A stretch of DNA of 64,000 nt from Acidimicrobiales bacterium (GTDB taxonomy: Bacteria > Actinomycetota > Acidimicrobiia > Acidimicrobiales > VFJN01). The translations under genes and the position numbers were made by a program. Location: positions 10,249-74,248 of the forward strand of contig DATHJB010000135.1 in the NCBI GenBank assembly GCA_035316325.1, read 5' to 3'. The notes beneath the pieces are model-generated. The model did not search any database. It saw nothing but the letters and a program-made list of their open reading frames with translations, and was not told the origin of the DNA. Below, in pieces: positions 773-57,411 of this stretch. Position 1 is the first letter of the stretch. The number at the start of each line of letters is the position of its first letter.

Positions 773-3700
773 CGGGGCATCACCACCGCCAGGATCCGGC
801 CCGGGGCCACCAGCTCGCCGGGCTCGCACGCCAGCCGGACCACCGTCGCCGCCTCGGGCGCCCGCAGCACGGTCTCGGTCTTCATCGCCTCCAGCACCAC
901 CATCGTGTCGCCGGCCTCCAGGCGGTCGCCCTCCTTCACGGCCACCGACCACACCCGCGCCGCCAACGGCGCCGTGACCGCCCACGCCCCGTCGGGCACC
1001 TCCACCTCGGGCCCCGCAGCCGGCGCCTCCAGCATGCTCCGCTCGATCGCGTCGGCCGCCGCCAGCTCGCCCCGCGCCTCCCAGGCCTCCCGCTCGGCGC
1101 CGAACGCGGCCCGCTGGTGGGCCCCGAAGGCGGCGATGCCCTCGGCCTCTGCGGCCAGGAAGCCGTGGTGCTCGGCGATCGACAAGGTGCCGTCGGTGAT
1201 CTCCGGCGACCAGCGCCCGGCGTCGCGCTCGGCCCGTAGCTCCAGCAGCTCGTCGGCCTCCACCGGGTAGAAGCGCAGCCGGTCGAAGAACCGCAGCAGC
1301 CAGGGCGTCTCCCCCTCGGCCGGCCAGCGACGCCACATCTGGGTGGTGCGGCCGATGAACTGGTAGCCGCCCGGCCCCTCCATCCCGTAGACGCACAGGT
1401 ACGCGCCGCCGATGCCGACGGCGTTCTCCGGCGTCCAGGTGCGGGCCGGGTTGTACTTGGTGGTGACCAGGCGGTGCCGCGGGTCGAGCGGCGTGGCGAC
1501 CGGGGCGCCCAGGTAGACGTCGCCCAGGCCGTAGACCACGTAGTCGGCGGCGAACGCGATGGCCCGCACGTCGTCGATCGAGTCGAGCCCGTTGACCCGC
1601 CGGATGAACTCCAGGTTGCTGGGGCACCAGGGCGCGTCGGGTCGCACCGAGCGCATGTAGATGTCGATGGCCTTGCGCACGGCGGGGTCGTCCCACGACA
1701 GCGGCAGGTGGACCACCCGGCTGGGCAGCACCACGTCGTCGACGCCGGGCAGCTCGCTATCGGCCCGCCTGACCAGGTCGATGGCCTGCTCGACGGTGAG
1801 GTCGTGCCCGTCCACCTGCACCTGCAGCGAGCGGATCCCCGGCGTCAGGTCGACCACACCGGCGACCTGCTCGGCGGCGAACCAGGCGGCCAGCTGGTGG
1901 ACGCGCACCCGCAAGTCGAGGTCGAGCACGGGCAGCCCGACCTCGACCAGCAGGTGGCGGTCGCCGCTGCGTCGGAAGGTGAGCGGGGGCCGGGCGGTCG
2001 GCTCCGTCCGACCGAGGACGGTCACTGCCGGGCCGGTCCGTCGAGCGAGGGCAGGGAGGGGTTCGATCCCCGCGGCGCCGCCCGCCGGCGCCGCGAGGAT
2101 CGCGTCCTGAGCCCTCCGTCCCGCCTCGGCCGCTGCGACCGTCACGGGCACGAGGCGCACCTTGTCGCCCGCCCGGAGCTGGCCGATCTTCCACAGGTCG
2201 GCGTCGACGACCGTGGCGGGACACACGAAGCCGCCGAGGCTGGGGCCGTCGGGGCCGAGGATGACCGGCATGTCGCCGGTGAAGTCGACGGTGCCGACGG
2301 CGTAGGCGTTGTCGTGGATGTTCGACGGGTGCAGCCCGGCCTCGCCGCCGTCGGGTCGGGCCCACGACAGCCGCGGCCCCACCAGCCGCACGCCGGTCCG
2401 CGCCGAGTTGTAGTGGACCTCCCAGTCGGTGCCGTACAGCAGCTCGACGTCGTCGTCGGTGAGGTACTCGGGTGCGGCGTGGGGACCGTCGAGCACCGCC
2501 AGCGACCAGCGGTCGGTCAGCTCGGGGGCCACCTCCGCCGGGAGTCCCGCGGCAACGACAGGGGCGACGGGCTCCGGGTCGATCCGCAGCAGGTCGCCCG
2601 GCTGCAGCTCCCGTCCGGCCAGGCCGCCGAAGCCCCCCAGGTCGAACGTGGTGCGGCTGCCCAGCACCTCCGGGACGGCCAGCCCGCCCCGCACGGTCAG
2701 GTACGCCCGCGCCCCGGCACCGACGATGCGACCCAACCGCAGCGTCGCGCCGGCCGGCACCTCGATCGGCCGAAACTGCGACAGAACCGGCCCGTTTCGG
2801 GCGTCTCCTGTCGCAACTTCGAGCTGGGCCGACATGTCGGCACCCATGAGGCAGACGACGGCCGGGCGGTGGAACAGCAGGGTCGGGCCGGCGACGGAGC
2901 ACTCCAGGCCGGCGGCATCCGGCCGGTTGCCGAGCAGCTGGTTGCCCAGGCGGAACGACCAGTCGTCCATCGGCCCGCTGGGCGGCACCCCGACCGACCA
3001 GTAGCCCCGCCGTCCGGGGTACGACACGACCAGCGACCGCCCGCCCGACTCGCTCCCGGTCGCCCCCACCTCGACCGCGTAGGGACGAAAGGGCAGGTCG
3101 GCCAGCAGCGCCGTGGTGGCACGCCCCGCCACGAACCGCGGATCGGCGAGGATCGCCTGCAGGTGCTCGACGTTGGTCTCGATGCCGTCGAGCTGCAGCT
3201 CCGCCAGCGCCCCGTCGAGCCGGGCCAGCGCCGCCGAGCGATCCGGGCCGTGCGCGAGCACCTTCAGCAGCAGCGGGTCGTACCAGGGAGTGACCTCGGT
3301 GCCCGCCTCCACCCACCCGTCGCAGCGCACGCCGTCACCCGACGGGAGCCGCACGTGGGTCAGTCGACCCGGGCTGGGCTGGAACTCCCGGGCCGGGTTC
3401 TCGGCGTACACCCGGGCCTCGACGGCGTGCCCGGTCCCGACCGGCACCGGCGACGAGAACATCCCCCGGTCGCCGGCGGCTAGCCGCACCATCCACGCCA
3501 CCAGGTCGACGTCGTGGGTCAGCTCGGTCACGCCGTGCTCCACCTGCAGCCGGGTGTTCACCTCCAGGAAGTGGTGCTCCCCGGAGTCGGCGTCGACCAC
3601 GAACTCCACGGTCCCGGCCGACCGGTAGCCGACCGCGGCGGCCAGCGCCCGGGCATCGGCCACCAGCGCCGCCCGCGTCGCCGGCGCCAGCCCGACGGCG

Positions 3701-16247: not shown

Positions 16248-16287
16248 GCCGGCCGACGCTAGCTGCAGGTCATAGGCTCGCTGCCAT

Positions 16288-17013
16288 ATGGACATGACCG
16301 CGGCCGAGGGGCGCGTGCTGGGATGCCTCGTCGAGGCCCAGGTCGCCAACCCCGACGTGTACGCGGTCACGCTCGACGAGCTGCGCTTCTCCTGCAACCA
16401 GATCACCGGGCGCGAACCGGTGATGCTGCTGGACGACCGCGTGGTCGAGGACACGCTGCTGATGCTCAAGTCCCGTGGCCTGGCCCGCTTCGTGACGGCC
16501 GGTCACCGCGCCGGGCCCATCAGCTACCGCCATCGGGCCGACGAGCGCTGGCGGCTGGGCGAGCCCGAGCTGGCGGTGTTGGCGGTGCTGCTGGTGCGGG
16601 GTCCGCAGACCGTCGACCAGGTGTACCGGCTGCTCGACGAGAAGCAGCTGGCCGGCTCCCGCACCGAGGTGGAGGCGGCGCTCGACACGCTGGCGGGCCG
16701 CACGCCCCGGTCGCTGGCCACCCGGTTGGCGCCGTCGGGGCCGGGGCCCGCCCAGCCCGGTGACGTCATGTGGGCAGAGGTGCTGACCGGCCCGCCGCAG
16801 GTCGAGACGCTGTTCCCGGTGCCGCCGCGGTCCCCGGTGGCCGTCCAGCCCGGCAATGCCCCACGGCTGTCGCCCACCCTCGCCGAGGTGGCCGACCGGC
16901 TCACCAACATCGAGCGGCGCCTGGCGGGCATCGAGGCGGCCCTGCAGTCGCTGCGGGGCGCCACCGCACCGCCGGCACCCCGCACCGCCGGCCCCAGCCG
17001 CATCCACCGCTGA
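16288..17013 (+). CDS. DUF480 (YceH-like) family protein
   Basis: Track ORF. EGRVLGCLVEAQVANPDVYAVTLDELRFSCNQITGREPVM, LAVLAVLLVRGPQT and a C-terminal coiled-coil parallel E. coli YceH (from memory). Confidence 0.8.
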   Translation: MDMTAAEGRVLGCLVEAQVANPDVYAVTLDELRFSCNQITGREPVMLLDDRVVEDTLLMLKSRGLARFVTAGHRAGPISYRHRADERWRLGEPELAVLAVLLVRGPQTVDQVYRLLDEKQLAGSRTEVEAALDTLAGRTPRSLATRLAPSGPGPAQPGDVMWAEVLTGPPQVETLFPVPPRSPVAVQPGNAPRLSPTLAEVADRLTNIERRLAGIEAALQSLRGATAPPAPRTAGPSRIHR

Positions 17014-17014
17014 C

Positions 17015-17067
17015 CCGAAACCTCGACGGAGCTGGCGCCATAGCCACCACTTCTGGCGAAGTTTCGG
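17015..17067 (-). repeat. nested-palindrome repeat, copy A (reverse orientation)
   Basis: Reverse complement: CCGAAACTTCGCCAGAAGTGGTGGCTATGGCGCCAGCTCCGTCGAGGTTTCGG. Fills the 55-nt gap between convergent stops at 17013 and 17069. Confidence 0.85.
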
Positions 17068-17068
17068 C

Positions 17069-18424: not shown

Positions 18425-18521
18425 CGACGCAGGCTAGGCGCGGGCGTCGGGCCGACCGGAGCGCGGGCGCCGCGACGACATTCGGGCCGCTCGACAACGG
18501 TCTGTCGTCCTGGCGTCACAG

Positions 18522-18734
18522 TTGACCGGTATGGTGGGCGGCGTGACCGAGTCCCGTGCGCATGACGAGGCGATCCACGAAGCCCTTGCCATCATCGACA
18601 AGGGCCTTGGCGACCTGCTCCATCGTGAGCTGGTCTCGACCAACGAGGTAGCGGACCTGCTCCTCGACGTGCGAACCCTGCTGTCCACTCCCAATCCTGA
18701 CCGCGACGAGAGCGACGTCGTCGTCGCCAGCTGA
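18522..18734 (+). CDS. small hypothetical protein (70 aa)
   Basis: Track ORF (TTG; an internal ATG follows 3 codons later). Sits in an otherwise empty 450-nt gap. Moderate G/C third-position bias. No family recognised. Confidence 0.35.
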   Translation: MTGMVGGVTESRAHDEAIHEALAIIDKGLGDLLHRELVSTNEVADLLLDVRTLLSTPNPDRDESDVVVAS

Positions 18735-18878
18735 GCGGTCCCTGCGTCGAGCCCGGTCGCCTCGGCCGAGCTCCAGTAGACGGCGTTCTCGTTCAAGGGC
18801 GAGCGAGCTCTGGATCGGTGTAGAAACCGGTCCCGTGCCATCGGTGGATCGACCGTGACGCTCCGCGTGCCCTGCGGG

Positions 18879-20630
18879 CTACCCGCAGAGCTCCAGGCGG
18901 GCCTCTGCCGGGATGGGCGGCACCCGGAGCTGCGTCCGGCTCACTGAGCCCACGACGTTGCGCAGGAAGCGGCCGGGCGTGAGCGGTGCGTCGACCGCGT
19001 CGACGAGATCGACCAGGTCGCCACAGGCCAGAGCGGCACGGGCGTCGTCGACCACGGGCTCGTCGACCGAGGGCTGGGCGAACCGGGCGACCAGCCACTC
19101 CCAGCCGAGGATCTTCTCGTGCCCCGGCCGGCTGGGTGGCCCGGCCTCCATGTGCGCCCCCAGCGGCTCGGCCAGGCTGAGCTGGTCGATCACATGGGTC
19201 CCCAGGAACTTGTAGCCGACCAGCCCGATGGACCCACCCACCAGCAGCGGCCGGTCGCTCCGGGCGTAGCGGCCCGAGCCGCCCAGGTCCACCAGCTGGC
19301 CCTCCCGCGGCAGCTCGCCCAGCTGCACGAGCCCCGACTCGACGTAGGTGGCGTAGTCGTCGTAGGTGACGGGACGCTCGTCGCCGGCCAGCAGCATCCA
19401 CACGAGTCGCTCGTTGGCGATGCCGTCGACGGAGAGGTCGCCGTCGACGGCGGCCGTGGTCGGGTCGTCGGTGATGTCCACCGGGTCCCAACGGCGGAAG
19501 CCGCCGATGAGGACCAGCGTCGTTGCCAGCGCCCCGACGCCGGCCCAGGCCACCAGCCGGCGCCGTGACGGCAGCGGGAACGCCGCCACCGGGCAGACGA
19601 GGGCGAAGGTGGCGGGCAGGAACAGGCGGGCGTACATGAAGTCGCCGCCCACCTTCACCACGTAGATGCCGTTGATCAGGGCCGCCACCACCGGGGCCGC
19701 CGCGACGATCGCGTGGCGCCGTGTCGGCCCGGCCGTCGGCGCCTCCAGCAGGATCAGGACCGCCAGCAGACCCAGCGGGATCAGCAGCAGGGTGGAGCCG
19801 ACGTACACGTCGAGGTAGGTCCAACCCCGCGACCACAGGCTGCGGCCCGCCTCCTTGGCCAGCGCCGTGTTCGGCACCAGGAGCCCGTAGTAGCCCATGC
19901 GGAACACCTGGTAGAGGAGGGGGGCGGCCAGTCCCAGGCCGAGGGCCCGGAGGTTGGCGCGGCGCGAGAGGCGTGATGTGGCCACCAGCGCCACCGCGAA
20001 GGCGACGCTGAACACCACGAAGTCCGGCCGGATCAGTGGGCCCAGGCCGATCAGCCCCGCGGCCCATCCCGAAATCTCGACAGAAGTGGTCGCTATGGCG
20101 CCATCCCTGTCGAGATTTCGGTGGGGGTCGAGGCGGCGGGCGACGGCCCACCAGCAGGCACCGATCCAGGCGAAGCTCAGGCCGGTCTCCAGGCCGGAGC
20201 TGGCGAAGTCCCACATGGGTGGCAGGGCGACCAGGAGCAGGGCGCCCAGCGGCAGGGGAGCGTCGCGGCCGATGCTGGCCCACCAGCGGCGGGCGCCTGC
20301 CGCGGCGAAGGCGATGCCCGCCAGGGTCAGGGCGATGCCCGCCAGCACCGCCGTCCAGGCAGGGTCGAGGAACCACAGCAGGACGCGGGCGACGACCAGT
20401 ATGGCGATCCACAGCGGGCTGGTGCCGGCCTCCACCCGTTCGCCGGCGTTGAACACCGGGCCGTCGCCGTGGAGGACGTTCCAGACGATGCGGAGGTTGA
20501 TGAAGCCGTCGTCGGACACCCAGCGGTGGTGCCACGCCAGCACGGCGAAGCACACCACCGGAAGCCACACCGCGACGACGGTGCCAGCCGTGACGCGACC
20601 GGCCCACGACCCACGGCGTGTCCTCGACAT
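18879..20630 (-). CDS. polytopic membrane glycosyltransferase, GT-C fold (ArnT/arabinofuranosyltransferase-like)
   Basis: Track ORF. First-loop motif RWVSDDGFINLRIVWNVLHGDGPVFNAGERVEAGTSPLW, followed by many TM helices and a soluble C-terminal domain. Carries an in-frame palindromic repeat at 20069-20127. Confidence 0.7.
   Translation of the reverse strand: MSRTRRGSWAGRVTAGTVVAVWLPVVCFAVLAWHHRWVSDDGFINLRIVWNVLHGDGPVFNAGERVEAGTSPLWIAILVVARVLLWFLDPAWTAVLAGIALTLAGIAFAAAGARRWWASIGRDAPLPLGALLLVALPPMWDFASSGLETGLSFAWIGACWWAVARRLDPHRNLDRDGAIATTSVEISGWAAGLIGLGPLIRPDFVVFSVAFAVALVATSRLSRRANLRALGLGLAAPLLYQVFRMGYYGLLVPNTALAKEAGRSLWSRGWTYLDVYVGSTLLLIPLGLLAVLILLEAPTAGPTRRHAIVAAAPVVAALINGIYVVKVGGDFMYARLFLPATFALVCPVAAFPLPSRRRLVAWAGVGALATTLVLIGGFRRWDPVDITDDPTTAAVDGDLSVDGIANERLVWMLLAGDERPVTYDDYATYVESGLVQLGELPREGQLVDLGGSGRYARSDRPLLVGGSIGLVGYKFLGTHVIDQLSLAEPLGAHMEAGPPSRPGHEKILGWEWLVARFAQPSVDEPVVDDARAALACGDLVDLVDAVDAPLTPGRFLRNVVGSVSRTQLRVPPIPAEARLELCG
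20069..20127 (+). repeat. nested-palindrome repeat, copy B, inside the GT-C coding sequence
   Basis: CCGAAATCTCGACAG-AAGTGGTCGCT-ATGGCGCCAT-CC-CTGTCGAGATTTCGG-TGGGGG. The 15-bp outer arms pair perfectly and the central 10-bp palindrome is perfect. Confidence 0.85.
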
Positions 20631-20697
20631 CGGAGGGAGACCGTAGTGCCGGTCACCCTCCGCAACGAGTCGAACCCGGACGGGCCCCGGGAGGGGT

Positions 20698-21294
20698 TCA
20701 GCGCTTCAGTGAGGTGTGCTTGAACTCGTTGAGCTCGGGGGCGTCGACCAGCAGGTCGACGACGCGCTGGATGCTGCGGCGGGCGTGGGCGGCGTCGTCG
20801 CCGGGACGGTCCATCAGCCGCACGAACACCGCGGCGTCGCCCTGCAGGAAGGTGGGCACGCCCCACACCTCGAAGTCGTCGACGGCGGCGGTGTGCTCCG
20901 CGCGGATGCGGGCCAGGGCGGTCCCCTCGGCGATCTCCGCGAACACGGCGTCGGCGTCGATGCCCTGGTCGGTGAGGACCCGGCGGACGTCGGGCTCCTC
21001 GAACTTGCGACCCTCGTCGTGGCGGAGGGCGAACAGCGCCAGGTGCACGTCGAAGAACCGGTCGGGCCAGCGGTCGCGCACCACGACACCCGCCTGCAGC
21101 GCCACGAGGCCGCTGTCGTCCTCCGGCCGCTCCCAGATGTCGGTCTCACCCTCGGCGACGTGGACCTGGCCGAGCGAGAACGGCACGAACCGCACGTTCC
21201 AGTCGGCGCCGTCCTTCAGGGCTTTCACCAGGTGTTCGTGGGCATTGCGGGCGAACGGGCAGCGGTAGTCCCAGGTCACGGCGAAGTCGGTCAT
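20698..21294 (-). CDS. DsbA-like thioredoxin-fold protein
   Basis: Track ORF. N-terminal WDYRCPFARNAHE (single Cys in a CPFA context) and C-terminal VWGVPTF, typical of DsbA/FrnE-like proteins. Confidence 0.7.
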   Translation of the reverse strand: MTDFAVTWDYRCPFARNAHEHLVKALKDGADWNVRFVPFSLGQVHVAEGETDIWERPEDDSGLVALQAGVVVRDRWPDRFFDVHLALFALRHDEGRKFEEPDVRRVLTDQGIDADAVFAEIAEGTALARIRAEHTAAVDDFEVWGVPTFLQGDAAVFVRLMDRPGDDAAHARRSIQRVVDLLVDAPELNEFKHTSLKR

Positions 21295-21324
21295 CGAGTG
21301 GGTCCAACCGATCGAACGGCTCGA

Positions 21325-21894
21325 CTATTTCCGTGCCGGCCACACCCGCCGGGCCAACAGCGCCAGGCCCGCGCCGAGCGCGGCGCCGGCGACGACGTCG
21401 GACGCGTGGTGCACCTTCACGTACACACGGCTGGTGGCGACGGTGGCGGCGACCACCGCGTAGAGCGGCCACAGCGGGTCGTTCTGGGCGAGCACCCCGA
21501 AGGCGGTGACCGCCGACGAGGCGTGGCCCGACGGGAAGCTCGACGTGCGGGGCTGGCGCAGCTTCAGCGGGCGGTCCTGCTCCCACGTCGGCCGGCGCCG
21601 GCCTACCAGCGACTTCACCACGCCGTTCACGAACACCGACTCCAGGCCGATGATGGTGGCCACCCGCACGGCGTCCTCGGCCCGCCGGTCGGGCGCCAGC
21701 GCCCGCGCCGTGCCGATCAGGTGCCAGATCAGGCTGAAGTCGCCGAGCTCCGACGCCGCGTACATCACCCGGTCGAGCGTGGGGTTGCCCCGCCACTGTT
21801 GCACCCAGGTGTCGACGGCGTCGTCGAACCGGGTGATCGCCTGCCGGGCCCGCTCCGCCACCGCTCCCTCGGGCGGGGGTAGCTCCGTCATCAC
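21325..21894 (-). CDS. PAP2 family phosphatase
   Basis: Track ORF. KxxxxxxRP, PSGH, SRxxxxxHxxxD motifs: KSLVGRRRP, SFPSGHAS, SRVYVKVHHASDV. Confidence 0.85.
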   Translation of the reverse strand: MMTELPPPEGAVAERARQAITRFDDAVDTWVQQWRGNPTLDRVMYAASELGDFSLIWHLIGTARALAPDRRAEDAVRVATIIGLESVFVNGVVKSLVGRRRPTWEQDRPLKLRQPRTSSFPSGHASSAVTAFGVLAQNDPLWPLYAVVAATVATSRVYVKVHHASDVVAGAALGAGLALLARRVWPARK

Positions 21895-22757
21895 CCCGCC
21901 GCCGCCATGAGCTCCCTCGCCGCCTTCTCCGCCTTCTCGGCCTCGCGGGCCTCACGTGCCTCGCGGGCGATCTCCAGCGCGACGTCGGGGTCGCCGCCGT
22001 AGGACGGGCAGTACTCCTTGAAGGCGCAGTAGTCGCAGAGGCGGGACGGGCGGGGGCGGAAGTCCTCGCGCTCGCAGGCCCGCTCGACCGCCTGCCACAC
22101 GGCCGACAGGGAGCGGCGGGTGCCGCGGGTGGTCTGGTCGGTGGGCGTGGTGATGATGGCCACGGGTTGGCGGACGTAGAGCAGCTGCACCCGCGCCGGC
22201 CGGCGCCCCAGCAGCTCCTCGCACAGCAGCGAGTAGATGTGGACGCCCGAGAGCCGTTTGCGCTCGAAGTTCTCCGACGGCACCGAGCCGGTCTTGTAGT
22301 CGGTGACCACCAGCTCGCCGTCGGCGTCGAGCTCCAGCCGGTCGATGATGCCGCGCAGGCGCACGCCGTCGATCTCGACGTCCATCATCAGCTCGAGCCC
22401 GATCGCCTCGATGCGCTGCGGGTCCTCCAGCTGGAAGTAGCGCCTCACGAGTTCCGCGGCGTCGGCCTGGAACTCGGCGGCCGCCGCCTCGTCGAGCCCG
22501 AGCTCGGCGTAGTCGGGATCGTCGGCCATGTCGGACGCGGCCTCGCCCAACAGGCCCAAGGCGGCGTCGACCGTGCGTGAGGCCGCCGGCAGGACGTGCA
22601 GCCGCTCCAACGTCGTGTGCACCAGCGTGCCCTTCGTGGACCACGGGGCCGGCGGCTCGGGCAGCCGGTCGATGGCGGAGAAGCGGAACGCGAGCGCGCA
22701 GTCGGTGAAGCTCGACACCTTCGACGGGCTGAGGCTCACCGGTACCTGAAAGGCCAT
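21891..22757 (-). CDS. PD-(D/E)XK nuclease, RecB/Cas4-like with a 4-Cys cluster
   Basis: C-terminal 288 aa of track ORF 21891..23009, from ATG 22757 (MAFQVPVSLSPSKV...). Nuclease core GIIDRLELDADGELVVTDYKTG. Cys at FTDC plus CDYCAFKEYC. Confidence 0.8.
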   Translation of the reverse strand: MAFQVPVSLSPSKVSSFTDCALAFRFSAIDRLPEPPAPWSTKGTLVHTTLERLHVLPAASRTVDAALGLLGEAASDMADDPDYAELGLDEAAAAEFQADAAELVRRYFQLEDPQRIEAIGLELMMDVEIDGVRLRGIIDRLELDADGELVVTDYKTGSVPSENFERKRLSGVHIYSLLCEELLGRRPARVQLLYVRQPVAIITTPTDQTTRGTRRSLSAVWQAVERACEREDFRPRPSRLCDYCAFKEYCPSYGGDPDVALEIAREAREAREAEKAEKAARELMAAAG

Positions 22758-22813
22758 GCAGCGAGCGTATGCGCGCCCTATGACAGTGAAGGGGACCGCG
22801 GAGCGTGGGTTGA

Positions 22814-23188
22814 CTAGCTCAGCGTGTCGGGCACCTCGACGGGGGTCGGCGCGGCGAGTGCCTCGACCGAACCGGCGGCGCCGCTGCCGTCGTCGTTCCT
22901 CGGGCGCGGCGGAGGCGGTGGCGGCAATGGCCGGTCGAGGTTGGTGCGCGGCTCGGGGGTGTCGACGTAGGCGTCGAGCGCCTCCGTCGCGTCCTCGAGG
23001 CTCTGCCACAGCGTGACCGCCGGCTTCCCTTCGATGTTGATCGAGATCGCCGAACCGTCGGCGAACCTCAGCCCCCAGGCGATGGGGCGCCAGCCCAGTG
23101 CGGTGCCGTCTTCATCCCAAAGGTCCTGGTAGAAAGCCAACAACCGCGGCACGTGGAAATTGGGCGTGGTGCCGGAGTCCTGACCCAT
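22814..23188 (-). CDS. hypothetical protein with a Pro-rich C-terminal tail
   Basis: Track ORF 22814..23302, start taken at ATG 23188 (MGQDSGTTPNFHV...). No family recognised. The N-terminal codons are A/T-richer than the window norm. Confidence 0.5.
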   Translation of the reverse strand: MGQDSGTTPNFHVPRLLAFYQDLWDEDGTALGWRPIAWGLRFADGSAISINIEGKPAVTLWQSLEDATEALDAYVDTPEPRTNLDRPLPPPPPPRPRNDDGSGAAGSVEALAAPTPVEVPDTLS

Positions 23189-23329
23189 CCGTGTTGCCCC
23201 TCTTCTGCCCTTGTTGTTCTGGAGTTCCAGCTGGACGGCGGCGACACGACACCTCACTGCACGACATAGCGTGACGCGTTCCGCACGCTCAGAGACTTGC
23301 ACAGGATGGTTGCTCGTACAAGAGAGAGA

Positions 23330-24211
23330 TTACGAAAAAGCGACGAAATCCGGGGTTATTGAGGCCGCAATTGTCACCGGGTCCTCCATCGGACCGAAGT
23401 GGGTCAGCTCCGGGAAGCGCCGCAGCGAGCCGTTCCCGAGCGACGAGCTGACCAGCGCGGCCATCTGCGCCGGCGGCGCGCCGTCACCGCTGGCGGCCAC
23501 CGTCGTCGGGCAGGCGACCTGCCCCAGGCCCGCGAAGGCGCCGTTGTCGAGGCCCGCCTCGAAGATGCGGGCCTCCGTCTCCGGCGCGCACTTGAGCTCC
23601 ACGCTGCCGTCGGGTCGCGAGCGGAAGCCGTGGTCGACGTAGGCGTGCAGCGCCTCGGACGTGAAGCGGTTGAGCGGTGGCTTGGCGTGGTAATTGGCGA
23701 ACGCCGCGTCACGCGAGGGAAACACGGCACGCCGGCGCCGCGCCGACTCCGCCAGCACGTTGCCCGGAAGGACCCGGCCCTCGGGGCGGGGGAAGACGAT
23801 CGGCTCGTAGCACCACAGCGCCGCCCAGGTGCCCGGGTGGGCCTGCTCGGCCAGCACCAGGGCGGCGCCGCCCATCGAGTGGCCGACGCCCAGCAGCGGC
23901 TCGTCGCCACCACCGATCAGCTCGACGACCGCCAGCACGTCGTCCGCCATGCCGCGCCACGACAGGTCGTCGGAGGCCGGCAGCGTGCTGTCGCCGTGGC
24001 CCCGGAAGTCGAGCGCCCAGCAGTGGAAGCGGTCGGCGAGGTGCCAGCCCACCGGCGACCACGTCAGCCCGTGGAAGCCCGTGGGATGGCAGAGCAGCAG
24101 CGGCGGGCCGTCGCCACCGAGGTCGTGCACGGCCAGGGACACGCCGTCGCTGGAGGCGACGCGGTGGGCGGCGGGCTCGCTCGGTGGGGTCGGCGGGGTC
24201 ACGGGGCTCAT
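23330..24211 (-). CDS. alpha/beta hydrolase
   Basis: Track ORF 23330..24388, start at ATG 24211 (MSPVTPPTPP...). LLLCHPTGFHG, nucleophile elbow GVGHSMGGA. Confidence 0.85.
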   Translation of the reverse strand: MSPVTPPTPPSEPAAHRVASSDGVSLAVHDLGGDGPPLLLCHPTGFHGLTWSPVGWHLADRFHCWALDFRGHGDSTLPASDDLSWRGMADDVLAVVELIGGGDEPLLGVGHSMGGAALVLAEQAHPGTWAALWCYEPIVFPRPEGRVLPGNVLAESARRRRAVFPSRDAAFANYHAKPPLNRFTSEALHAYVDHGFRSRPDGSVELKCAPETEARIFEAGLDNGAFAGLGQVACPTTVAASGDGAPPAQMAALVSSSLGNGSLRRFPELTHFGPMEDPVTIAASITPDFVAFS

Positions 24212-24299
24212 GCTGGCATCGAGAGATCGCGCCTTCCCAGTCCGACCTGGGCCTACCTCGCGGATAGCGTGCGGATCGGTGCAGCGCTCATCCCCACCC

Positions 24300-24914
24300 A
24301 TGACGGCGTTCGCTCCGGCGGCGCCACCGCTCGACGGGCGCAGTGCGCGCGCCCTGCGGACGCGTGAGGCGATCGTCGACGCGTGCATCGGTCTGGTCGA
24401 GGAGGGTCAGCTGCGGCCCACCGCCCCACAGGTGGCGGAGCGGGCGGGAGTGTCGGTGCGCTCGGTGTTCCAGCACTTCGCCGACCTGCCGTCGCTGCAC
24501 ATCGCCGTGAGCGAGCGGATCGTCGCCCGGCTGGCGGTGCTGCTCCACCCGATCGACCCGTCGCGGCCGCTCGACGACCGCATCGCGGCTTTCGTCCGCC
24601 ACCGCGGCGGCCTGCTGGAGGCGGTCACCCCGTTCCGCCGGGCCGCCAACGTCCACGGGCCCTTCGCCCCCGAGATCGCCGAGGTGAACCGGGCCGCCAC
24701 CGACTACCTGCGCGACGAGGTGGCCCGCGCCTTCCGGCCCGAGCTCGATCTCGTCCCGGCCGCCGACCGCCGCGAGGTGCTGGAGGCGCTCGCCACCACG
24801 CTGTCGTGGTCGGCGTGGGACGCGCTGCGCAGCGACGGCGGCTGCACCGTGCCCCAGGCGACGGCGGTCATGCGGCGCATCGTGCGGGCCGTGCTGGCAT
24901 CGGTCAACGACTGA
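24300..24914 (+). CDS. TetR family transcriptional regulator
   Basis: C-terminal 204 aa of track ORF 23829..24914, from ATG 24300. TREAIVDACIGLVEEGQLRPTAPQVAERAGVSVRSVFQHF. Confidence 0.8.
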   Translation: MTAFAPAAPPLDGRSARALRTREAIVDACIGLVEEGQLRPTAPQVAERAGVSVRSVFQHFADLPSLHIAVSERIVARLAVLLHPIDPSRPLDDRIAAFVRHRGGLLEAVTPFRRAANVHGPFAPEIAEVNRAATDYLRDEVARAFRPELDLVPAADRREVLEALATTLSWSAWDALRSDGGCTVPQATAVMRRIVRAVLASVND

Positions 24915-25742
24915 GCCGCTGGAAGGCGCGGACGGCGAGCGGCAACGTGAGCACGGTGATGAGCACCGGCCACAGGACGGCCATGGGCAGCGCGTTGTCG
25001 GCGATCCAGCCGGAGCCCTCCACGCCGGGGTTGCCGAACAGGTCGCGGGTGGCGGTGACCGTGGCCGACAGCGGGTTCCACTCGGCGATCGTGCCCATCC
25101 AGCTGGGCATGAGGTCGGGTGCCACGAAGGCGCTCGACAGCATCGTGACGGGGTAGAGGAGCCCGAACATCGAGTTGGCGGCCTCGGCGCTCTTGGCCCG
25201 CAGGCCCAGGAAGATGCCGATCCACAGGAACGCCTGGCGCAGGAGCAGCAGCAGCCCGACCGCGGCCAGCGCCTCGACGACCGTGCCGTGCCAGCGCCAG
25301 CCGATCGCCAGACCGCACACGATCATGAGCGCCAGGCTCGCGGCGGAGTACGCCATGCCGGCGATGCAGCGTCCGACGACCACGGCCGACGGCGCCATCG
25401 GCATCGACCGGAAGCGGTCGGTGACGCCCTTCTCGGTGTCGGCCTGCACCGCGGCGAGCGTCTCGCCGATGCCGAACGCCATCGTCTGAGCGAACATCCC
25501 CGGCATGAGGAACTCCCGGTAGCTGCCGCCGCCGGGCACGGACATGGCGCTCCCGAAGACGTAGGCGAACAGCAGCACGAACATCACCGGGAACATGAGG
25601 CCCCAGACGATCATCTGTGGCTGGCGCACCCACTGGGCCATGTCGCGCTGGGCGACGAGCCAGCCGTCCCGCAGCGCCCAGCGCAGCCGGGCGGTCGGCG
25701 GGAGGGCGACGGTGGTGCTCACAGGGGCGCTCACGGCGGTGC

Positions 25743-25746
<4 letters not shown>
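24904..25746 (-). CDS. ABC-2 type exporter permease (DrrB-like)
   Basis: C-terminal 280 aa of track ORF 24904..26208, from ATG 25746 (MSTAVSAPV...). Six predicted TM helices. ATGA overlap with the ATPase gene. Confidence 0.85.
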
Positions 25747-26744
<998 letters not shown>

Positions 26745-26830
26745 CCGGTCCCCTTACTCAATACAGTGTACGGAGTGATTGGCCAAGTTAGCGTACGGCG
26801 TAAAGAGTTACAAACCAGGAGCCGCGAGAG

Positions 26831-27625
26831 ATGACCGAGTACGCCGGCCGTGGCGACCCGCGGCGCACGCTGAACCTGCTGTGGGGGCGCGCCGATGCGC
26901 CGGCCCGAGGCCCGAAGCAGGGGTTGACCGTGGCGGAGATCGTGGCGGCCGCCATCGAGGTCGCCGACGCCGAGGGCCTGGGCGCGGTGTCGATGCGCAG
27001 GGTGGGCGAGCGCCTCGGCAAGAGCGCCATGGGCCTCTACACCTACGTGCCCAGCAAGGCCGAGCTGTTGGACCTCATGCTCGACGCCGTCCTCGGCGAG
27101 CTGCCCACCGACTACCCGCTCGACGAGGGCTGGCGCGCCGCCGTCGAGCGCTGCGCCCGTGACGGGTGGGCGTTCTACGAGCTCCACCCCTGGGTGCTGC
27201 AGGTCTCGGGTGCCCGCGCCGCCCTCGGTCCCCACGAGTTCGACTCCTACGAGACCCAGCTACGGCTGTTCGCAGGCCGCGGGCTCACCGGCGTCGAGAT
27301 GACGCGCGCCGTCGGGGCGCTCGCCAGCTTCGTGCGAGGTGCCGCCAAGGCCGTGTCCGACGCCCGCACCGCCGAGCAGGCGACCGGCCTCAGCGACGAC
27401 GACTGGTGGAACGCCCGCGCCCCGCTCCTGGAGGAGCTGGCGGACGAGACCTGGGCCGAGCGCTATCCCACCGTCACCCAGCTGTCGGCCGAGCAGGCCT
27501 TCGACCAGGTCGACCGTCCCGACGACACGACCCCTTATCTCGTGCAGGACGCGCTCGACACCTTCGAGTTCGGGCTGCAGCGCCTGCTCGACGGCCTCGA
27601 GACCTACGTCAACCGAGGCTCTTGA
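26831..27625 (+). CDS. TetR family regulator with a TetR-C (tetracycline-repressor-like) domain
   Basis: Track ORF. LTVAEIVAAAIEVADAEGLGAVSMRRVGERLGKSAMGLYTYVPSK. Divergent from the ABC exporter genes. Confidence 0.85.
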   Translation: MTEYAGRGDPRRTLNLLWGRADAPARGPKQGLTVAEIVAAAIEVADAEGLGAVSMRRVGERLGKSAMGLYTYVPSKAELLDLMLDAVLGELPTDYPLDEGWRAAVERCARDGWAFYELHPWVLQVSGARAALGPHEFDSYETQLRLFAGRGLTGVEMTRAVGALASFVRGAAKAVSDARTAEQATGLSDDDWWNARAPLLEELADETWAERYPTVTQLSAEQAFDQVDRPDDTTPYLVQDALDTFEFGLQRLLDGLETYVNRGS

Positions 27626-28502
27626 GGGCCAGCATCATCTCTTCGTTGAGGCTGGCGGGTACCACGTAGCCGTCCTCGGTGCGGATGTCGTCGAAGCGGT
27701 CGCGCACGGTCTCGGCCGACAGGTCGGCGTCGAAGATCCCCGGCGTCACGCCGACGAACACCCGGGCCACGCGGCCACCGCCGACGGAGTAGACCTCGCC
27801 GGTCACCGCGCACTCCTCGTGCGCCAGGAAGGTGACCACGGGTGTGACCGACTCGGGCAGCAGCTTGTCGGCCAGCGGGCCGAGGATGTCCTCGGTCATG
27901 CGGGTCTTGGCGACGGGCGCGATGGCGTTGGCCTTGATGTTGTACTTGGCGCCCTCGATGGCGAGCACCCGCGTGAGCCCGACGAGGCCCATCTTGGCGG
28001 CGCCGTAGTTGGTCTGGCCGAAGTTGCCGAAGATCCCGGCGCCCGACGAGGTGTTCACGATGCGGCCGAAGCCCTGGTTCCGCATGTGCTCCCAGGCCGG
28101 CTGGGTGACGTAGAAGGCGCCCTTGAGGTGCACGTCGAGCACCGGTTCGAGCTGCTCGGCCGTCATGTTCTTGAACGACGTGTCGCGCAGGATCCCTGCG
28201 TTGTTGATGATGATGTCGACCTTGTCGAAGGCGTCGAGGGCCGACTGCACGATGGCCTTGCCGCCCTCGGGGGTGGCCACCGAGTCGTAGTTGGCGACGG
28301 CCTCGCCGCCGGCGGCCTTGATCTCGTCGACGACCGCCTGCGCCGCGGTGGTGCCGCTGCCCGTGCCGTCCGAGGAGCCGCCGAGGTCGTTCACGACGAC
28401 CAACGCGCCCCGCCGTGCCAGGTCCAGTGCGTGCGACCGGCCGAGGCCACCACCCGCGCCCGTGATGATCGCAACCTTGCCGTCGAATCCCAGATCTGCC
28501 AT
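27609..28502 (-). CDS. SDR, 3-hydroxyacyl-CoA dehydrogenase-like (MFE-2 N-terminal type)
   Basis: C-terminal 297 aa of track ORF 27609..28988, from ATG 28502. KVAIITGAGGGLGRSHAL, VVVNDLGG, NNAGILRD, YGAAKMG. Confidence 0.9.
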   Translation of the reverse strand: MADLGFDGKVAIITGAGGGLGRSHALDLARRGALVVVNDLGGSSDGTGSGTTAAQAVVDEIKAAGGEAVANYDSVATPEGGKAIVQSALDAFDKVDIIINNAGILRDTSFKNMTAEQLEPVLDVHLKGAFYVTQPAWEHMRNQGFGRIVNTSSGAGIFGNFGQTNYGAAKMGLVGLTRVLAIEGAKYNIKANAIAPVAKTRMTEDILGPLADKLLPESVTPVVTFLAHEECAVTGEVYSVGGGRVARVFVGVTPGIFDADLSAETVRDRFDDIRTEDGYVVPASLNEEMMLALKSLG

Positions 28503-28566
28503 GGACGGGAGCGTAGAGCGACCTTCCGAGGCGGTCCGAATCAGGTCGTCGACGTCGACCGAACTC

Positions 28567-28583
28567 AGCGAAGTAGCTTCGCT
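28567..28583. promoter_or_regulatory. perfect 7-3-7 palindrome in the divergent SDR / hypothetical intergenic region
   Basis: AGCGAAG-TAG-CTTCGCT, between starts at 28502 (-) and 28612 (+). Confidence 0.35.
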
Positions 28584-28611
28584 ACGTTTGGTAGTCAGGG
28601 AGGGCGGACCT

Positions 28612-29715
28612 GTGATCCACATGGACCCGGCGGTGGTCGGCGACTGGCGACGGGGCGGCGCGCGGAACGCGCTGTGCCTCGAGTTGGACGACCCCGCGGC
28701 TGGCTGGCCTGCGCTGTGCGACGTCCTCGACGAGGTGCCGGCCGGCTGGTCGGAGGTCGTCGTGGCGCCCGACGGGCTGCTGTTCGGGGGCGTCACCGAC
28801 GTCGATCCCGCGCCGGCGCTCGCCGAGGTGGTGGCCCGGCTGGGGGAGCGGGGCGTGGCGTCCGGGCGGCTGACCGTCGACCGCCACGCCGACGACGCCC
28901 AGCCCGGGGCCCTGCTCGACCTGGCCGAGACGACGTCGTGGGTGGCCGCCTGGCTGGTGCCGCTGATGGTGCCGGGCCTCAGCTTCACCTACCGGACGCT
29001 GCGGGAGTGGCGCATCCGGCGCTTCCCGCCGGCGCGGCTGACCGACGTGGTGGCCGATCTGGTGGCGGGGTCGCCCGTCGAGGTGGCGCGGGTCGGCTGG
29101 TCCGGCGGTGCGTTCGAGGTGCCGGCCGCCGATCTGCCCGCGTACGCCCGGCGTTGGACGGAGCACGGCACCACCACCACGAGCGCACTGGCCGAGACGC
29201 TGCCCGAGGCGGCCGTGCTGGTGACGACCGTGCGACGCGGCACGGAGCTGGTGGGCGTCGGTCACGCCGGCGTCGGCCTCCTCGACGACCGGCCGCGGGC
29301 CGAGACGGCGCTCGAGGAGCTCACCGAGCTGATCGTGGGGCTGGCCGACGTGCTGGCGTACGCCGTGGTCGGCGTGCACGAGACGGGGCGCGAGGCGGCG
29401 CTGGGCACGCCGTTCCGGGAGACCGAGCCGGCGACCGCCCGGGCCCGCAGCCGTGGCCTGAGCCTGGCGGCGCTCGACCAGTGGGTGCTCGACGCCGCCC
29501 CGGTCCAGCTGCTCAGCACCCACCACCGGGTGAACCCCGGCGATGACGTGACGGAGGAACCCGTCGCCGCCGGCCGCCGCCTGGTCCGCATCGGCACCCC
29601 GACGGACTGGTTCTCGGGCCCGACCGCTCGCTCCCAGGTCCGCAACCGCGGCCGCCAGGCCCTCTCCGCCTGCCTCCCACCCCCGAAGACCCCGATGCCC
29701 GCCCCACTCCTGTGA
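28612..29715 (+). CDS. hypothetical protein
   Basis: Track ORF 28291..29715. GTG 28612 is preceded by GGGAGGG, with an in-frame ATG at 28621. G/C-rich third positions. No family recognised. Confidence 0.55.
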   Translation: MIHMDPAVVGDWRRGGARNALCLELDDPAAGWPALCDVLDEVPAGWSEVVVAPDGLLFGGVTDVDPAPALAEVVARLGERGVASGRLTVDRHADDAQPGALLDLAETTSWVAAWLVPLMVPGLSFTYRTLREWRIRRFPPARLTDVVADLVAGSPVEVARVGWSGGAFEVPAADLPAYARRWTEHGTTTTSALAETLPEAAVLVTTVRRGTELVGVGHAGVGLLDDRPRAETALEELTELIVGLADVLAYAVVGVHETGREAALGTPFRETEPATARARSRGLSLAALDQWVLDAAPVQLLSTHHRVNPGDDVTEEPVAAGRRLVRIGTPTDWFSGPTARSQVRNRGRQALSACLPPPKTPMPAPLL

Positions 29716-29727
29716 CAGCCCGACCCA

Positions 29728-29787
29728 CCGAAATCTCGACAGAGATGGTGGCTATAGCGCCATGTCTGTCGAGGTTTCGGTGGGGGG
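29728..29787 (+). repeat. nested-palindrome repeat, copy C
   Basis: CCGAAATCTCGACAGAGATGGTGGCTATAGCGCCATGTCTGTCGAGGTTTCGGTGGGGGG. Lies in the 72-nt gap between convergent stops at 29715 and 29788. Confidence 0.85.
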
Positions 29788-30471
29788 CTAGGTGCCGAGG
29801 GCGAGGTAGCCGATGCGTTCGGAGATGTGGACCGCGTGGTCGCCGAGGCGTTCGTAGAAGCGGCCGACGAGGGTGGTCTGCAGGGCGTCGGCGAGCTCCA
29901 GCTCGCCTGTTCCCAGCTCGGCGATGAGCCGGTCGTGGAGGTCGTCGAGGCGGTCGTCGATGGTGTCGATGCGCTCGGCGGCCTCGGCGTCGCGCTCGGC
30001 CCAGGCGTCGGCCGCGGCCTGCCACATCTCGACGCAGATGGAGCCCATCTCCTGGAGGATGCCGCGCACGCTGGGGGTCAGCCGCGTGGCCAGCCCGGCG
30101 ATGGCCCGCTGGGCGATGTGCTCGGCGAGATCGCCGCTGCGCTCCAGCTCGGGCACCACCCGGATGACCGTCAGCAGGTAGCGCATGTCGCCGGCCATCG
30201 GCGACTGCATCACCAGCTCACGCTGGGCCAGCTGCTCGAGGTCCTCTTCGAGCTGGTCGACGAAGGCGTCGCGCTCGGCGGTCGCCTCCGCGGCGGCCCG
30301 GTCGCCGGCCAGCAGCGAGTCGGTGGCGGCGGCGACGGCCTCGGTGACCAGCGCGAACAGGCGGATGACCTTGGCGTCGATGTCGGCCAGCTGCGAGTCG
30401 AACTGACGACGGAACTCGAAGGGCTCGGGCACGGTCGAACCGTAGCTGGCCCCTCCGCGGAGAGGGAACAT
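29788..30471 (-). CDS. phoU: PhoU family phosphate-signalling protein
   Basis: Track ORF. Two PhoU repeats, with E/DxxxD motifs such as ERSGDLAEHIA and ERLGDHAVHISE. Confidence 0.85.
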   Translation of the reverse strand: MFPLRGGASYGSTVPEPFEFRRQFDSQLADIDAKVIRLFALVTEAVAAATDSLLAGDRAAAEATAERDAFVDQLEEDLEQLAQRELVMQSPMAGDMRYLLTVIRVVPELERSGDLAEHIAQRAIAGLATRLTPSVRGILQEMGSICVEMWQAAADAWAERDAEAAERIDTIDDRLDDLHDRLIAELGTGELELADALQTTLVGRFYERLGDHAVHISERIGYLALGT

Positions 30472-30494
30472 GCCCGTACGTCGGGCTTTTCGCG

Positions 30495-31625
30495 CTACCA
30501 GGCGACGTCGGCGGCGCGAGTGAGGACGGTGTCGTCCGGGGGGATGAGCCAGTACCAGCCGCCCGTCGGGCTTCGCACCACCACGCCGCCGTCCGGCCCC
30601 ACGAGAAAGGCCGAGGTGCCCGTGCGGTCGGCGGTGAGCCGGTACGGCGGCGCGCCCGGGTCGGTCGTGCCCGCTGGCCGTCCGTCCTGCGTGACCTCAC
30701 GCAGGACGGACGACACGCCGGCGGCCTCGGCGGCCTGGCCCTGCGGGTGCTCCGCCACCAGGAGCGTCCCGTCGGCCAGGAACGCCGGCTGCGCCCACCA
30801 GCGGCCTTCGTCGGGTCGGGTCGGTGTCGCCTCGTCGAGCGACGCGGCGTCGACCGGCAGCAGCAGGATCTGCGTCTCGCTGCTGCCGTTGGCGACCTCG
30901 ACGGCCAGGCGATCGCCCTGCGGCGACCAGGCCACCGACATCACGTTGCCGTAGTGGTCACCGGCGTCGATGGTGCGCGTCACGTTGCCGTCGAGGTCGT
31001 GGACGGTGATGCCGTCGGGCTGGACCAGCGAGAACGCGAGGCCGTCAGGGCTGAAGGTCGGGTTGTAGCCGTAGCTCACGAATGTGGATTCACCGTCGGG
31101 CTCCAGCCGGTAGGTCATCCCGGCGGCGGGTTCGCAGCAGGTGGAGTACAGCACGGTGTCGTCGAGCCCGGCGGCGGCGTTGTCGATCGGGTCGCCGCCG
31201 GAGTCGGCGCCGCCGGCGAGCGTCTCGACCTCGCCCGAGTCGGTGTCGACCCGCACGAGCCGGCCGTCGGCGGTGGCCACCAGCAGGGAGCCCGGCTGGC
31301 GTGCCCCCTCCGAGACGACGTCGAGTGTCGTCCCGGAGGAGGCGTCATCGGCGGCATCGACGGACGGCTCCGCCGTCCTGACCTCGCCGTCGCCGCCGGT
31401 GAGCATGAGAAGGGCCGTCGCCAGGCCGCCGAACCCGGCGACGACCGCTGCCGCGACGAGCAACCAGCTCCGGCTGGCGGGGGGACCGCCAGCCGAGGAT
31501 GTGTCGTCGAGGCGTTCTCGGAACCGCTCCCAGGCATCGGGAGCGGGTGTCATTGAGGTGCCCTCCTCAACGAGCGCCCTCTCGATGAGCCCGTCGAGCT
31601 CGTCCAGCCCGTTCGGTCCGCTCAC
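30495..31625 (-). CDS. sigma-factor-associated single-pass membrane protein with a beta-propeller-like (TolB-like) extracytoplasmic domain; putative anti-sigma factor
   Basis: Track ORF. GTGA overlap with the sigma gene. TM helix WLLVAAAVVAGFGGLATALLML. Repeated FSPDG/WSPQGD-type blades. No zinc-binding HxxxCxxC motif seen. Confidence 0.6.
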   Translation of the reverse strand: MSGPNGLDELDGLIERALVEEGTSMTPAPDAWERFRERLDDTSSAGGPPASRSWLLVAAAVVAGFGGLATALLMLTGGDGEVRTAEPSVDAADDASSGTTLDVVSEGARQPGSLLVATADGRLVRVDTDSGEVETLAGGADSGGDPIDNAAAGLDDTVLYSTCCEPAAGMTYRLEPDGESTFVSYGYNPTFSPDGLAFSLVQPDGITVHDLDGNVTRTIDAGDHYGNVMSVAWSPQGDRLAVEVANGSSETQILLLPVDAASLDEATPTRPDEGRWWAQPAFLADGTLLVAEHPQGQAAEAAGVSSVLREVTQDGRPAGTTDPGAPPYRLTADRTGTSAFLVGPDGGVVVRSPTGGWYWLIPPDDTVLTRAADVAW

Positions 31626-45688: not shown

Positions 45689-45748
45689 CCGAAACTTCGA
45701 CAGAAACGGCGGCTATGGCGCCATCTGTGTCGAGATTTCGGTGGGCGG
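45689..45748 (+). repeat. nested-palindrome repeat, copy D
   Basis: CCGAAACTTCGACAGAAACGGCGGCTATGGCGCCATCTGTGTCGAGATTTCGGTGGGCGG. Lies in the 80-nt gap between convergent stops at 45679 and 45760. Confidence 0.85.
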
Positions 45749-56510: not shown

Positions 56511-56568
56511 GGAAATTGCGTTCGTCGGCCCGCCATGTGCGGGTTCTCGAACGCAATTTGCCCGGGGG
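56511..56568. repeat. nested palindrome with the same architecture but different arm sequence
   Basis: GGAAATTGCGTTCG-TCGG-CCCGC-CATGT-GCGGG-TTCT-CGAACGCAATTT-GCCCGGGGG. 12-bp outer arms, an inner 5-bp hairpin and a G-run tail. Intergenic, between the cysQ stop (56575) and the ABC1 kinase start (56478). Confidence 0.6.
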
Positions 56569-57330: not shown

Positions 57331-57411
57331 CCGGCATTCGTAACACGGTCACCGATGGTGCCGGGACTCGTATTGCTTACCAGTTTGGTCGGAATTTAAC
57401 CTTGGGCGCTC

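Follow-up and report, generated by a model that had tools for sequence, protein, structure and literature searches.

Fixed-length hairpin repeats at gene ends in an uncultured Acidimicrobiales-like actinobacterium: a probable non-autonomous mobile element

Introduction

For Proteobacteria and a few other phyla, there is good documentation of small mobile repeats of palindromic form. Correia elements, ERIC, RUP and BOX are small, non-autonomous repeats with inverted ends that are co-transcribed with neighbouring genes and able to alter the stability or termination of transcripts; the Correia elements of Neisseria duplicate a TA target, and their ends derive from an insertion sequence. Rickettsia palindromic elements (RPEs), palindromes of ~100-150 bp in an obligate intracellular alpha-proteobacterium, are inserted in frame in coding genes, to which they add a tolerated peptide. 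The BIMEs of E. coli bind IHF and gyrase, and Y1/HUH transposases act on REPs and on the ends of IS200/IS605 elements by reading a folded single strand. REPs are built from a 20-40 bp unit with a GTAG or CGTC terminal tag, often arranged in inverted pairs, and one RPE family has the CGTC tag as well (PMC3733652). A cognate RAYT gene, encoding a Y1/HUH transposase, typically stands between copies of the repeat. Moreover, insertion sequences are known to favour REPs as targets (PMC1525189). For high-G+C actinobacteria, hairpin-only (‘I-shaped’) terminators have been proposed, and their activity is disputed (PMC3993855).

In this work, we examine a family of hairpin repeats in a 64,000-nt stretch of DNA (hereafter the window) with a G+C content of 70-75% throughout. 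A sequence-only reading of the window had described four near-full copies and listed three options for their nature, namely bidirectional hairpin terminators or RNA stabilisers, REP/MITE-like mobile palindromes, and protein-binding sites. We find the mobile-palindrome option to be the best supported of the three. Below, we describe the copies and their anatomy, their spread, the evidence for insertion and the association with gene ends, and we then weigh the competing explanations.

Copies in the window

Exactly four sites in the window (copies A to D, Table 1) match the consensus given by the sequence-only reading at ≤3 mismatches, and these are the four copies that it had located. The consensus matches none of 100 dinucleotide-preserving shuffles of the window, giving a chance expectation of none for the four copies. 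Genes were placed by frame analysis of third-codon-position GC (GC3) together with Pfam, which returned the same gaps between convergent genes for copies A, C and D as had been proposed. Copy B, whose setting had gone undiscussed, lies not in an intergenic gap but inside an open reading frame (ORF) in which frame and GC3 phase run on unbroken. There it is antisense to the consensus orientation and encodes, in frame, HRNLDRDGAIATTSVEISG in a loop of variable length.

A search for further copies adds two diverged members to the window. Copy E is detected at 2762-2830 with 33 bits by a covariance model built from 88 copies; its arms are TGCGACAG/CTGTCGCA around the centre GCCCGAAACGGGC, and it encodes LEVATGDARNGPVLSQFR in frame. 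Copy F was found by a structure-only scan of the window and has arms TGCGTTCG/CGAACGCA; its membership rests on length, termini and hairpin shape, the S1-trained covariance model scoring it weakly (8.4 bits). It begins 13 nt downstream of a TGA stop, ahead of the co-directional gene that follows.

Table 1. Coordinates of the repeats, their flanking genes and related features. Positions are those of the window unless another locus is named.
Feature	Position	Strand	Class	Context
Copy A, 53-nt hairpin unit	17015..17067	-	S1	Fills a 55-nt gap
DUF480 gene, stop	17011-17013	+		Flanks copy A
Ser/Thr kinase gene, stop	17069-17071	-		Flanks copy A
Copy B	20069..20121	+	S1	In the gene of the next row
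AftB_C-type arabinofuranosyltransferase-like gene	18879-20630	-		Contains copy B
Copy C	29728..29780	+	S1	72-nt gap; copy named in the sequence-only reading
Gene without assigned function, stop	29713-29715	+		Flanks copy C
phoU	29788-30471	-		Flanks copy C
Copy D	45689..45741	+	S1	80-nt gap
Aldehyde dehydrogenase gene, stop	45679	+		Flanks copy D
Nitronate monooxygenase gene, stop	45760	-		Flanks copy D
Copy E	2770..2822	-	Diverged, S3-type	In the CT_A_B domain of the gene of the next row
Urea-carboxylase-like gene	769-5301	-		Contains copy E
Copy F	56511..56561	.	Diverged, labelled S5	GCAAATTGCGTTCG...CGAACGCAATTTCC, 51 nt
Gene preceding copy F	56575-57348	-		TGA stop at 56575-56577
TetR-family gene	26831-27625	+		Convergent with the gene of the next row
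Short-chain dehydrogenase gene	27609-28502	-		17-nt overlap, 27609-27625
ISL3-family insertion sequence, 1406 bp	L004 10745-12150			Outer arm of copy C (29728-29736) in another strain
Same insertion sequence	L088 182-1588			Adjoins a different copy
Copy with stop-forming arm changes	L085 7153-7205		S3	CCGTAAT...ATTACAG
Segment with S3 copies on both sides of an ORF	L085 7153-8216		S3	ORF 7200-8120 (-)
Partial arm duplication	L055 2286-2307		S1	Beside a full copy
Partial arm duplication	L091 6557-6568		S1	Beside a full copy
Tandem repeats in the gap of copy C	L099 2031-2094			~5 units of GGGGTACA
Spacer in the gap of copy C	L101 4685-4861			177 nt
In-frame length difference	L031 6296-6374; L048 1451-1461			Coding region
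Unrelated palindrome	L001 451-492			Low-G+C MAG

Hairpin structure and subfamilies

All four S1 copies of the window fold to long hairpins on either strand, with energies of -32 to -57 kcal/mol and z-scores of -3 to -12. Two parts of the architecture first proposed do not hold. ATGGCGCCAT, taken to be a self-complementary centre, is instead the 3' half of the inner stem, and the symmetry axis of the whole unit is the A of CTATGG within one single hairpin, in which positions 1-16 and 18-23 are paired with 53-38 and 36-31, respectively. Likewise, the G-run tail does not belong to the unit; it reflects a weak flank preference, CCCMM before the core and KKGGG after it.

The unit is a 51-nt perfect-length palindrome, or 53 nt with the usual outer C/G. 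Its length is rigid: the S1 cores of the deduplicated set are all 53 nt long with no insertion or deletion, and the pattern CGAAA-N41-TTTCG, which specifies no stem structure, occurs 102 times in 0.79 Mb, as opposed to 0-1 matches for each spacer of 35-40 or 42-47 nt between CGAAA and TTTCG. Copies are solitary, the nearest pairs lying 1-2 kb apart at an overall density of ~1 copy per 10-35 kb, and neighbouring copies are mixed in orientation.

At least five subfamilies can be distinguished, all bounded by CGAAAT...ATTTCG and identical in length, with stems that differ in sequence but remain complementary. Their arms are TCGACAG/CTGTCGA in S1, TGCGTGGC/GCCACGCA in S2 and GTGCACGG/CCGTGCAC in S4, and S3 combines the arms seen in copy E with a centre unlike those of the others. 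The covariance model trained on 88 copies added 12 diverged copies among the loci.

The suggestion that arm differences preserve pairing is borne out between subfamilies and fails within S1. Across 22 aligned representatives of the subfamilies, 87.8% of cells are paired versus 69.7% after shuffling, a value that none of 500 shuffles reaches; 17 of 22 pairs have changed on both sides, and the outer 5 pairs are almost invariant. This statistic rests on few splitting events, each of which comprises 5-8 compensated pairs. Within S1, pairing equals the shuffled expectation (78.5% versus 78.0%), as the polymorphic arm positions Y7 and Y8 vary independently of R46 and R47, and C.A mismatches are as frequent as U.G wobbles. 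The invariance of the remaining S1 arm positions is uninformative because the search pattern fixed them. Compensated stems could also be preserved through palindrome correction at the DNA level instead of function.

As a side observation, two loci (Table 1) show the opening ~12 nt of the S1 arm partially duplicated in tandem beside a full copy, and in L055 this yields the peptide repeat DEVSDEVS. These duplications may be slippage or an insertion footprint.

Distribution and host

Searches of metagenomes and genomes used an exact pattern covering all four S1 copies. They returned 84 further DNA stretches in JGI metagenomes, almost all from Ga0193742 and Ga0193743. After deduplication, 89 entries remain including the window copies, representing ~80 distinct loci, some entries being the same locus in different strains. 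The expectation that more copies would be found in the same organism is thus borne out by ~80 loci beyond the window in these two metagenomes. Two contigs break off within a copy, and repeats of this kind break metagenome assemblies and create spurious C-terminal extensions in gene calls.

An ENA metagenome contig of 109 kb that matches the window at 99.8% identity also encodes the window's PhoU, and a 64,183-nt JGI contig is the recorded source of proteins of the window itself. The best named homologues of two window proteins belong to Acidimicrobiales MAGs, at 68% and 84% identity; a Streptomyces origin, at first suggested by 72% G+C and phoU, was dropped on account of these homologues. The host is an uncultured, poorly studied Acidimicrobiales-like actinobacterium with reads in JGI Ga0193742/Ga0193743, ENA ERZ27267804 and SRR7026474-77, and the element has multiplied, probably recently, within this one lineage.

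The family has no match in Rfam, the searchable literature, 185,579 reference genomes and viral contigs. No Rfam family matches at the gathering threshold; at an E-value threshold, only generic microRNA-precursor hairpins appear, far below their cut-offs. None of six arm strings is found in the literature that could be searched, and literature searches on REP/RAYT repeats in Actinobacteria and on the run and sample accessions returned nothing. Among the 185,579 reference genomes (one per species), the pattern matches three times, each time in a low-G+C MAG and with no match judged to resemble the element, and viral contigs contain no pattern match. The one MAG match that was read (L001, Table 1) is an unrelated palindrome whose arms CGAAATCTCGACAG...TGTCGAGATTTCG equal the S1 arms and whose centre, length and context differ; we take the identity of its arms to be chance.

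Insertion and related genomes

Relatives encoding AftB_C-type proteins 80% and 75% identical to that of the window share its gene order, allowing comparison at the site of copy A. In two of the related contigs (L094 and L095), the stops of the kinase and DUF480 genes abut as TGATCA, that is TGA directly followed by TCA, precisely where copy A sits in the window; in a third (L096), they are separated by 10 nt. The window instead reads TGA, G, the 53-nt core, G and TCA, and conservation of the two C-termini reaches as far as the stop. As the stops of the relatives abut and the C-termini are intact, copy A is a 55-nt insertion between two stop codons without a target duplication. The relatives that share this gene order contain no copy in ~55 kb. 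The wider family agrees with insertion of this type: the flanks of 87 copies carry no direct-repeat signal above the shuffled expectation at k = 1-9, and no palindromic extension beyond the composition preference described above.

A clean empty site is seen for copy A only. At copy C, the comparison is not clean, since relatives with a 96%-identical PhoU carry other sequence in the gap, including tandem repeats of GGGGTACA, and in L101 a longer spacer (Table 1); turnover of this intergenic region is rapid. Copy B, for its part, falls in an indel-rich loop.

The few overlapping strain contigs reveal no presence/absence polymorphism of a hairpin that would point to ongoing mobility. The differences between strain contigs consist only of an insertion sequence and an unrelated 90-nt indel. 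The latter, between L031 and L048, is an in-frame length difference of ~90 nt in a coding region, bounded by the direct repeat CGTCGCCCCGC and unrelated to the hairpins.

The insertion sequence is an ISL3-family element of 1406 bp with the ends GGCTCAACTGACTGATCCGTGGG and GGCTCTCGGAGCGGATCCGTGGG. In a strain that is 99.8% identical, it occupies the outer arm of copy C, where it has produced an 8-bp target duplication, AGATTTCG. In L088, the same element adjoins another copy at this same arm position, this time without a duplication and with the far flank AGAAATCT. Across all loci, no other segment of more than 250 nt is repeated. Copies of the hairpin thus act as landing sites for this ISL3-family element. 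We considered and rejected this element as the parent of the repeats, as its ends (GGCTC...) are unrelated to the arms.

No candidate for a mobilising enzyme emerged from the available sequence. A phmmer search with E. coli RayT, a single distant and hence insensitive query, gave no match among 7178 six-frame ORFs from 0.86 Mb of partial genome; a scan of the same ORFs for the motif HUH...Y..NP gave nothing, and no TnpA-like ORF was detected among them. Furthermore, in the available loci of this partial genome, no longer element is bounded by the arms of the repeat (CCGAAAYYTCGACAG), and solo arms are almost absent. Two genes flanked by two copies were considered as transposases and dismissed, namely a luciferase-like oxidoreductase and an AbiEi/DUF559 ORF, neither of which is a transposase or consistently associated with the copies. 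The latter is the ORF enclosed by S3 copies in L085, with AbiEi_4 and DUF559/MTES_1575 restriction-endonuclease-like domains.

Gene ends and reading frames

Contexts were called from the coding phase of the flanks, with copies oriented to the consensus, and 13 copies were uncallable. Around 50 copies lie between convergent genes, 19 in a (-,-) setting (including 4 intragenic copies and 1 insertion-sequence artefact) and 7 in a (+,+) setting; none lies between divergent genes. For extragenic copies with a callable 3'-facing gene, the stop codon is always 0-41 nt away, with medians of 11 nt and 5.5 nt on the two sides. Because this proximity holds in co-directional settings too, it is the upstream stop that the element follows, not the intergenic region at large. 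Where no element is present, convergent gaps are tiny, for example 0 nt at the copy A site in relatives; within the window, a TetR-family gene and a short-chain dehydrogenase gene overlap convergently (Table 1).

In 13 copies, the association is closer still, in that an ORF of 148-873 codons enters the element by 26 nt and stops at a TAG derived from the central CTA. The resulting element-encoded C-terminal tails follow the pattern E[IT]ST[EQ]xA[PTLR] before the stop, for example EISTEMAP. At one S3 copy in L085 (7153-7205), matched A-to-T/T-to-A changes in the two arms have made the TAA codons that terminate both convergent genes.

A minority of copies lies within genes. Four intragenic S1 loci, ~5% of copies, are embedded in long ORFs with a strong coding signal on both sides: copy B, a CofD/FbiA-like gene (L055, the same as L041), a CobN-like gene (L067) and a glycine oxidase gene (L077). 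All four copies are antisense to the consensus, are read in the same frame and encode RN[LF]D[TR][DS]GA[LIM]AT[ST]SVE[VI]S. The CofD/FbiA-like protein bears a clean insert of 22-23 residues relative to PDB 6uvx, and the glycine oxidase has 7 additional residues relative to 6j38. Copy B adds 15 residues relative to an 80%-identical homologue, in a loop whose length varies among homologues, and copy E makes its protein 8 residues longer than PDB 3va7 over the corresponding stretch. Hence, some copies occupy one reading frame inside genes or replace a gene's last codons, and in a minority of copies the added peptide is absent from homologues, as in RPEs.

The statement that these repeats are not classical intrinsic terminators stands, because they have no U-tract. 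The hairpin of a canonical intrinsic terminator is present and the U-rich tract absent, the 3' flanks being KKGGG or, on the other strand, its mirror. In addition, positions 16000-31000 of the window contain no match to a hairpin-plus-T-run terminator (shuffles give ~2 sites) and none to a sigma-70-like promoter. The absence of terminator matches in these 15 kb fits an organism in which canonical intrinsic terminators are not used.

Interpretation

We consider the repeats to be a non-autonomous, REP/MITE-like mobile hairpin element, a reading to which we assign a probability of roughly 65%. It follows from the combination of a family of fixed length restricted to a single lineage, an orthologous site that is empty, copies inserted within coding frames and at gene ends, and several subfamilies per genome; the absence of the element from close relatives and reference genomes and its presence at ~80 dispersed loci point the same way. 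Insertion occurs without target-site duplication, and surviving copies sit 0-41 nt past stop codons, mostly between convergent genes. A trans-acting enzyme would read both the base of the stem, CGAAAT/ATTTCG, and the shape of the hairpin, probably in single-stranded DNA. Termini that are fixed and stems that are free but compensated suggest that a folded strand is recognised, not a duplex sequence. Copies may persist at gene 3' ends through targeted insertion, or through selection that purges insertions elsewhere, and the tie to stop codons may reflect either. Once in place, the stable hairpin would become part of the mRNA 3' end of one flanking gene or of both, where it may block read-through or 3' exonucleases; position and predicted stability make a role at RNA 3' ends plausible.

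An alternative places function before mobility: the hairpins might primarily be functional RNA, as bidirectional factor-independent terminators or 3'-end protectors kept by selection, with repetitiveness a by-product of recruitment. The position of every callable extragenic copy just past a stop, the avoidance of divergent (promoter) regions and the great stability of the hairpins on both strands speak for it, as does the lack of U-tract terminators from 15 kb, which implies that the host must end its transcripts otherwise; indeed, REPs elsewhere have been argued to be RNA elements on the same positional grounds (PMC3733652). We nonetheless judge it unlikely. The repeats have no U-tract, on which intrinsic termination in vitro depends for the RNA polymerase of mycobacteria, the best studied of the actinobacterial enzymes (PMC3993855), and a terminator requires structure, not a fixed 51-nt length or CGAAAT termini. 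Relatives run the same junction with a 0-nt gap, in-frame copies lie inside genes where termination would be harmful, no strand bias of G.U over A.C is seen, and the spread of copies is left unexplained. A more speculative reading, which we regard as doubtful, holds that an enzyme other than a RAYT targets the element to the post-stop junction, recognising for example TGA abutting TCA or a 3'-end-specific DNA or RNA structure, and that the host uses the element as a portable two-way gene-end module. If true, such a module would give a hairpin to both transcripts and, if needed, a new stop with a short C-terminal tail.

Readings at the level of double-stranded DNA fare worse. The symmetry of the inverted repeat, its fixed spacing and invariant termini, and a frequency of about one copy per 10-35 kb would suit sites for a dimeric protein that organises the chromosome, be it nucleoid-associated, gyrase-like or a regulator. 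Arm sequences that are wholly different yet complementary, however, would be tolerated by a reader of hairpins and not by a duplex binder, and with an empty copy A site and no copies in ~55 kb of the relatives, as well as no candidate protein identified, we find such sites very improbable. Least probable of all, in our estimate, is that the repeats are ordinary MITEs, deletion derivatives of a DDE insertion sequence with the 15-nt arms as terminal inverted repeats. The arms do resemble terminal inverted repeats, the size suits small MITEs, and a DDE insertion sequence of the ISL3 family resides in the same genome; yet its GGCTC... ends do not match the arms, target-site duplications are absent both from the empty-site comparison and from the flanks of 87 copies, and the available part of the genome offers no longer element between paired arms and almost no solo arms. 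Arms that differ while their outer 6 nt are identical fit structure-based recognition better than a readout of terminal repeats.

Comparison with known systems

Considered as a mobile hairpin, the element differs from Correia-type repeats and MITEs in that neither a target duplication nor, in the partial genome, a parent insertion sequence is found. The ‘I-shaped’ terminators suggested for high-G+C actinobacteria resemble it in being G+C-rich hairpins directly after the stop without a U-tract, but they comprise unrelated sequences defined by structure, whereas here one family of fixed length has arisen by insertion. With the RPEs, the element shares in-frame insertion, seen at four loci in the same orientation and frame and, in one case, as a clean insert versus a solved homologue; it departs from them in that only ~5% of its copies are intragenic. 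Elements of the IS200/IS605 type have hairpin ends, make no duplication, enter 3' of a set tetra- or pentanucleotide with a strand bias, and come with a TnpA; in the present family, the hairpin and the lack of duplication are seen, the flanks exhibit only a weak CCCMM preference, orientations of neighbouring copies are mixed, and no TnpA-like ORF was detected in the available 0.86 Mb.

The likeness to REPs and REPINs is more extensive. Like these, the element is a short imperfect palindrome with many dispersed copies, several subfamilies per genome and no target-site duplication, and its high copy number (~80 loci and 6 window copies) is distributed over co-directional and convergent sites. 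REPs, too, occur between convergent or co-directional genes, downstream of coding regions, with occasional intragenic copies (PMC3733652), and they attract insertion sequences (PMC1525189) as this element attracts ISL3. The differences are equally clear. The ends are CGAAAT...ATTTCG in all subfamilies, with neither GTAG nor CGTC at either end; the unit is a single, solitary and rigid hairpin of 51-53 nt rather than a 20-40 bp repeat or doublet; and copies keep unusually close to stop codons, genes sometimes ending within the element. A RAYT was not found in the available 0.86 Mb. Moreover, the host is an Acidimicrobiales-like actinobacterium, and the Di Nocera survey (PMC3733652) nowhere uses the word Actinobacteria in its text.

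The rigid length, the fixed outer 6 bases and the free but compensated stems separate what an enzyme probably reads, the stem base and the shape, from what it ignores, and this clean anatomy makes the search for the enzyme concrete. Within one genome, the family combines three effects: gene ends have been reshaped, with 13 genes terminating in a copy, loops have been added to enzymes, and an insertion sequence has been attracted.
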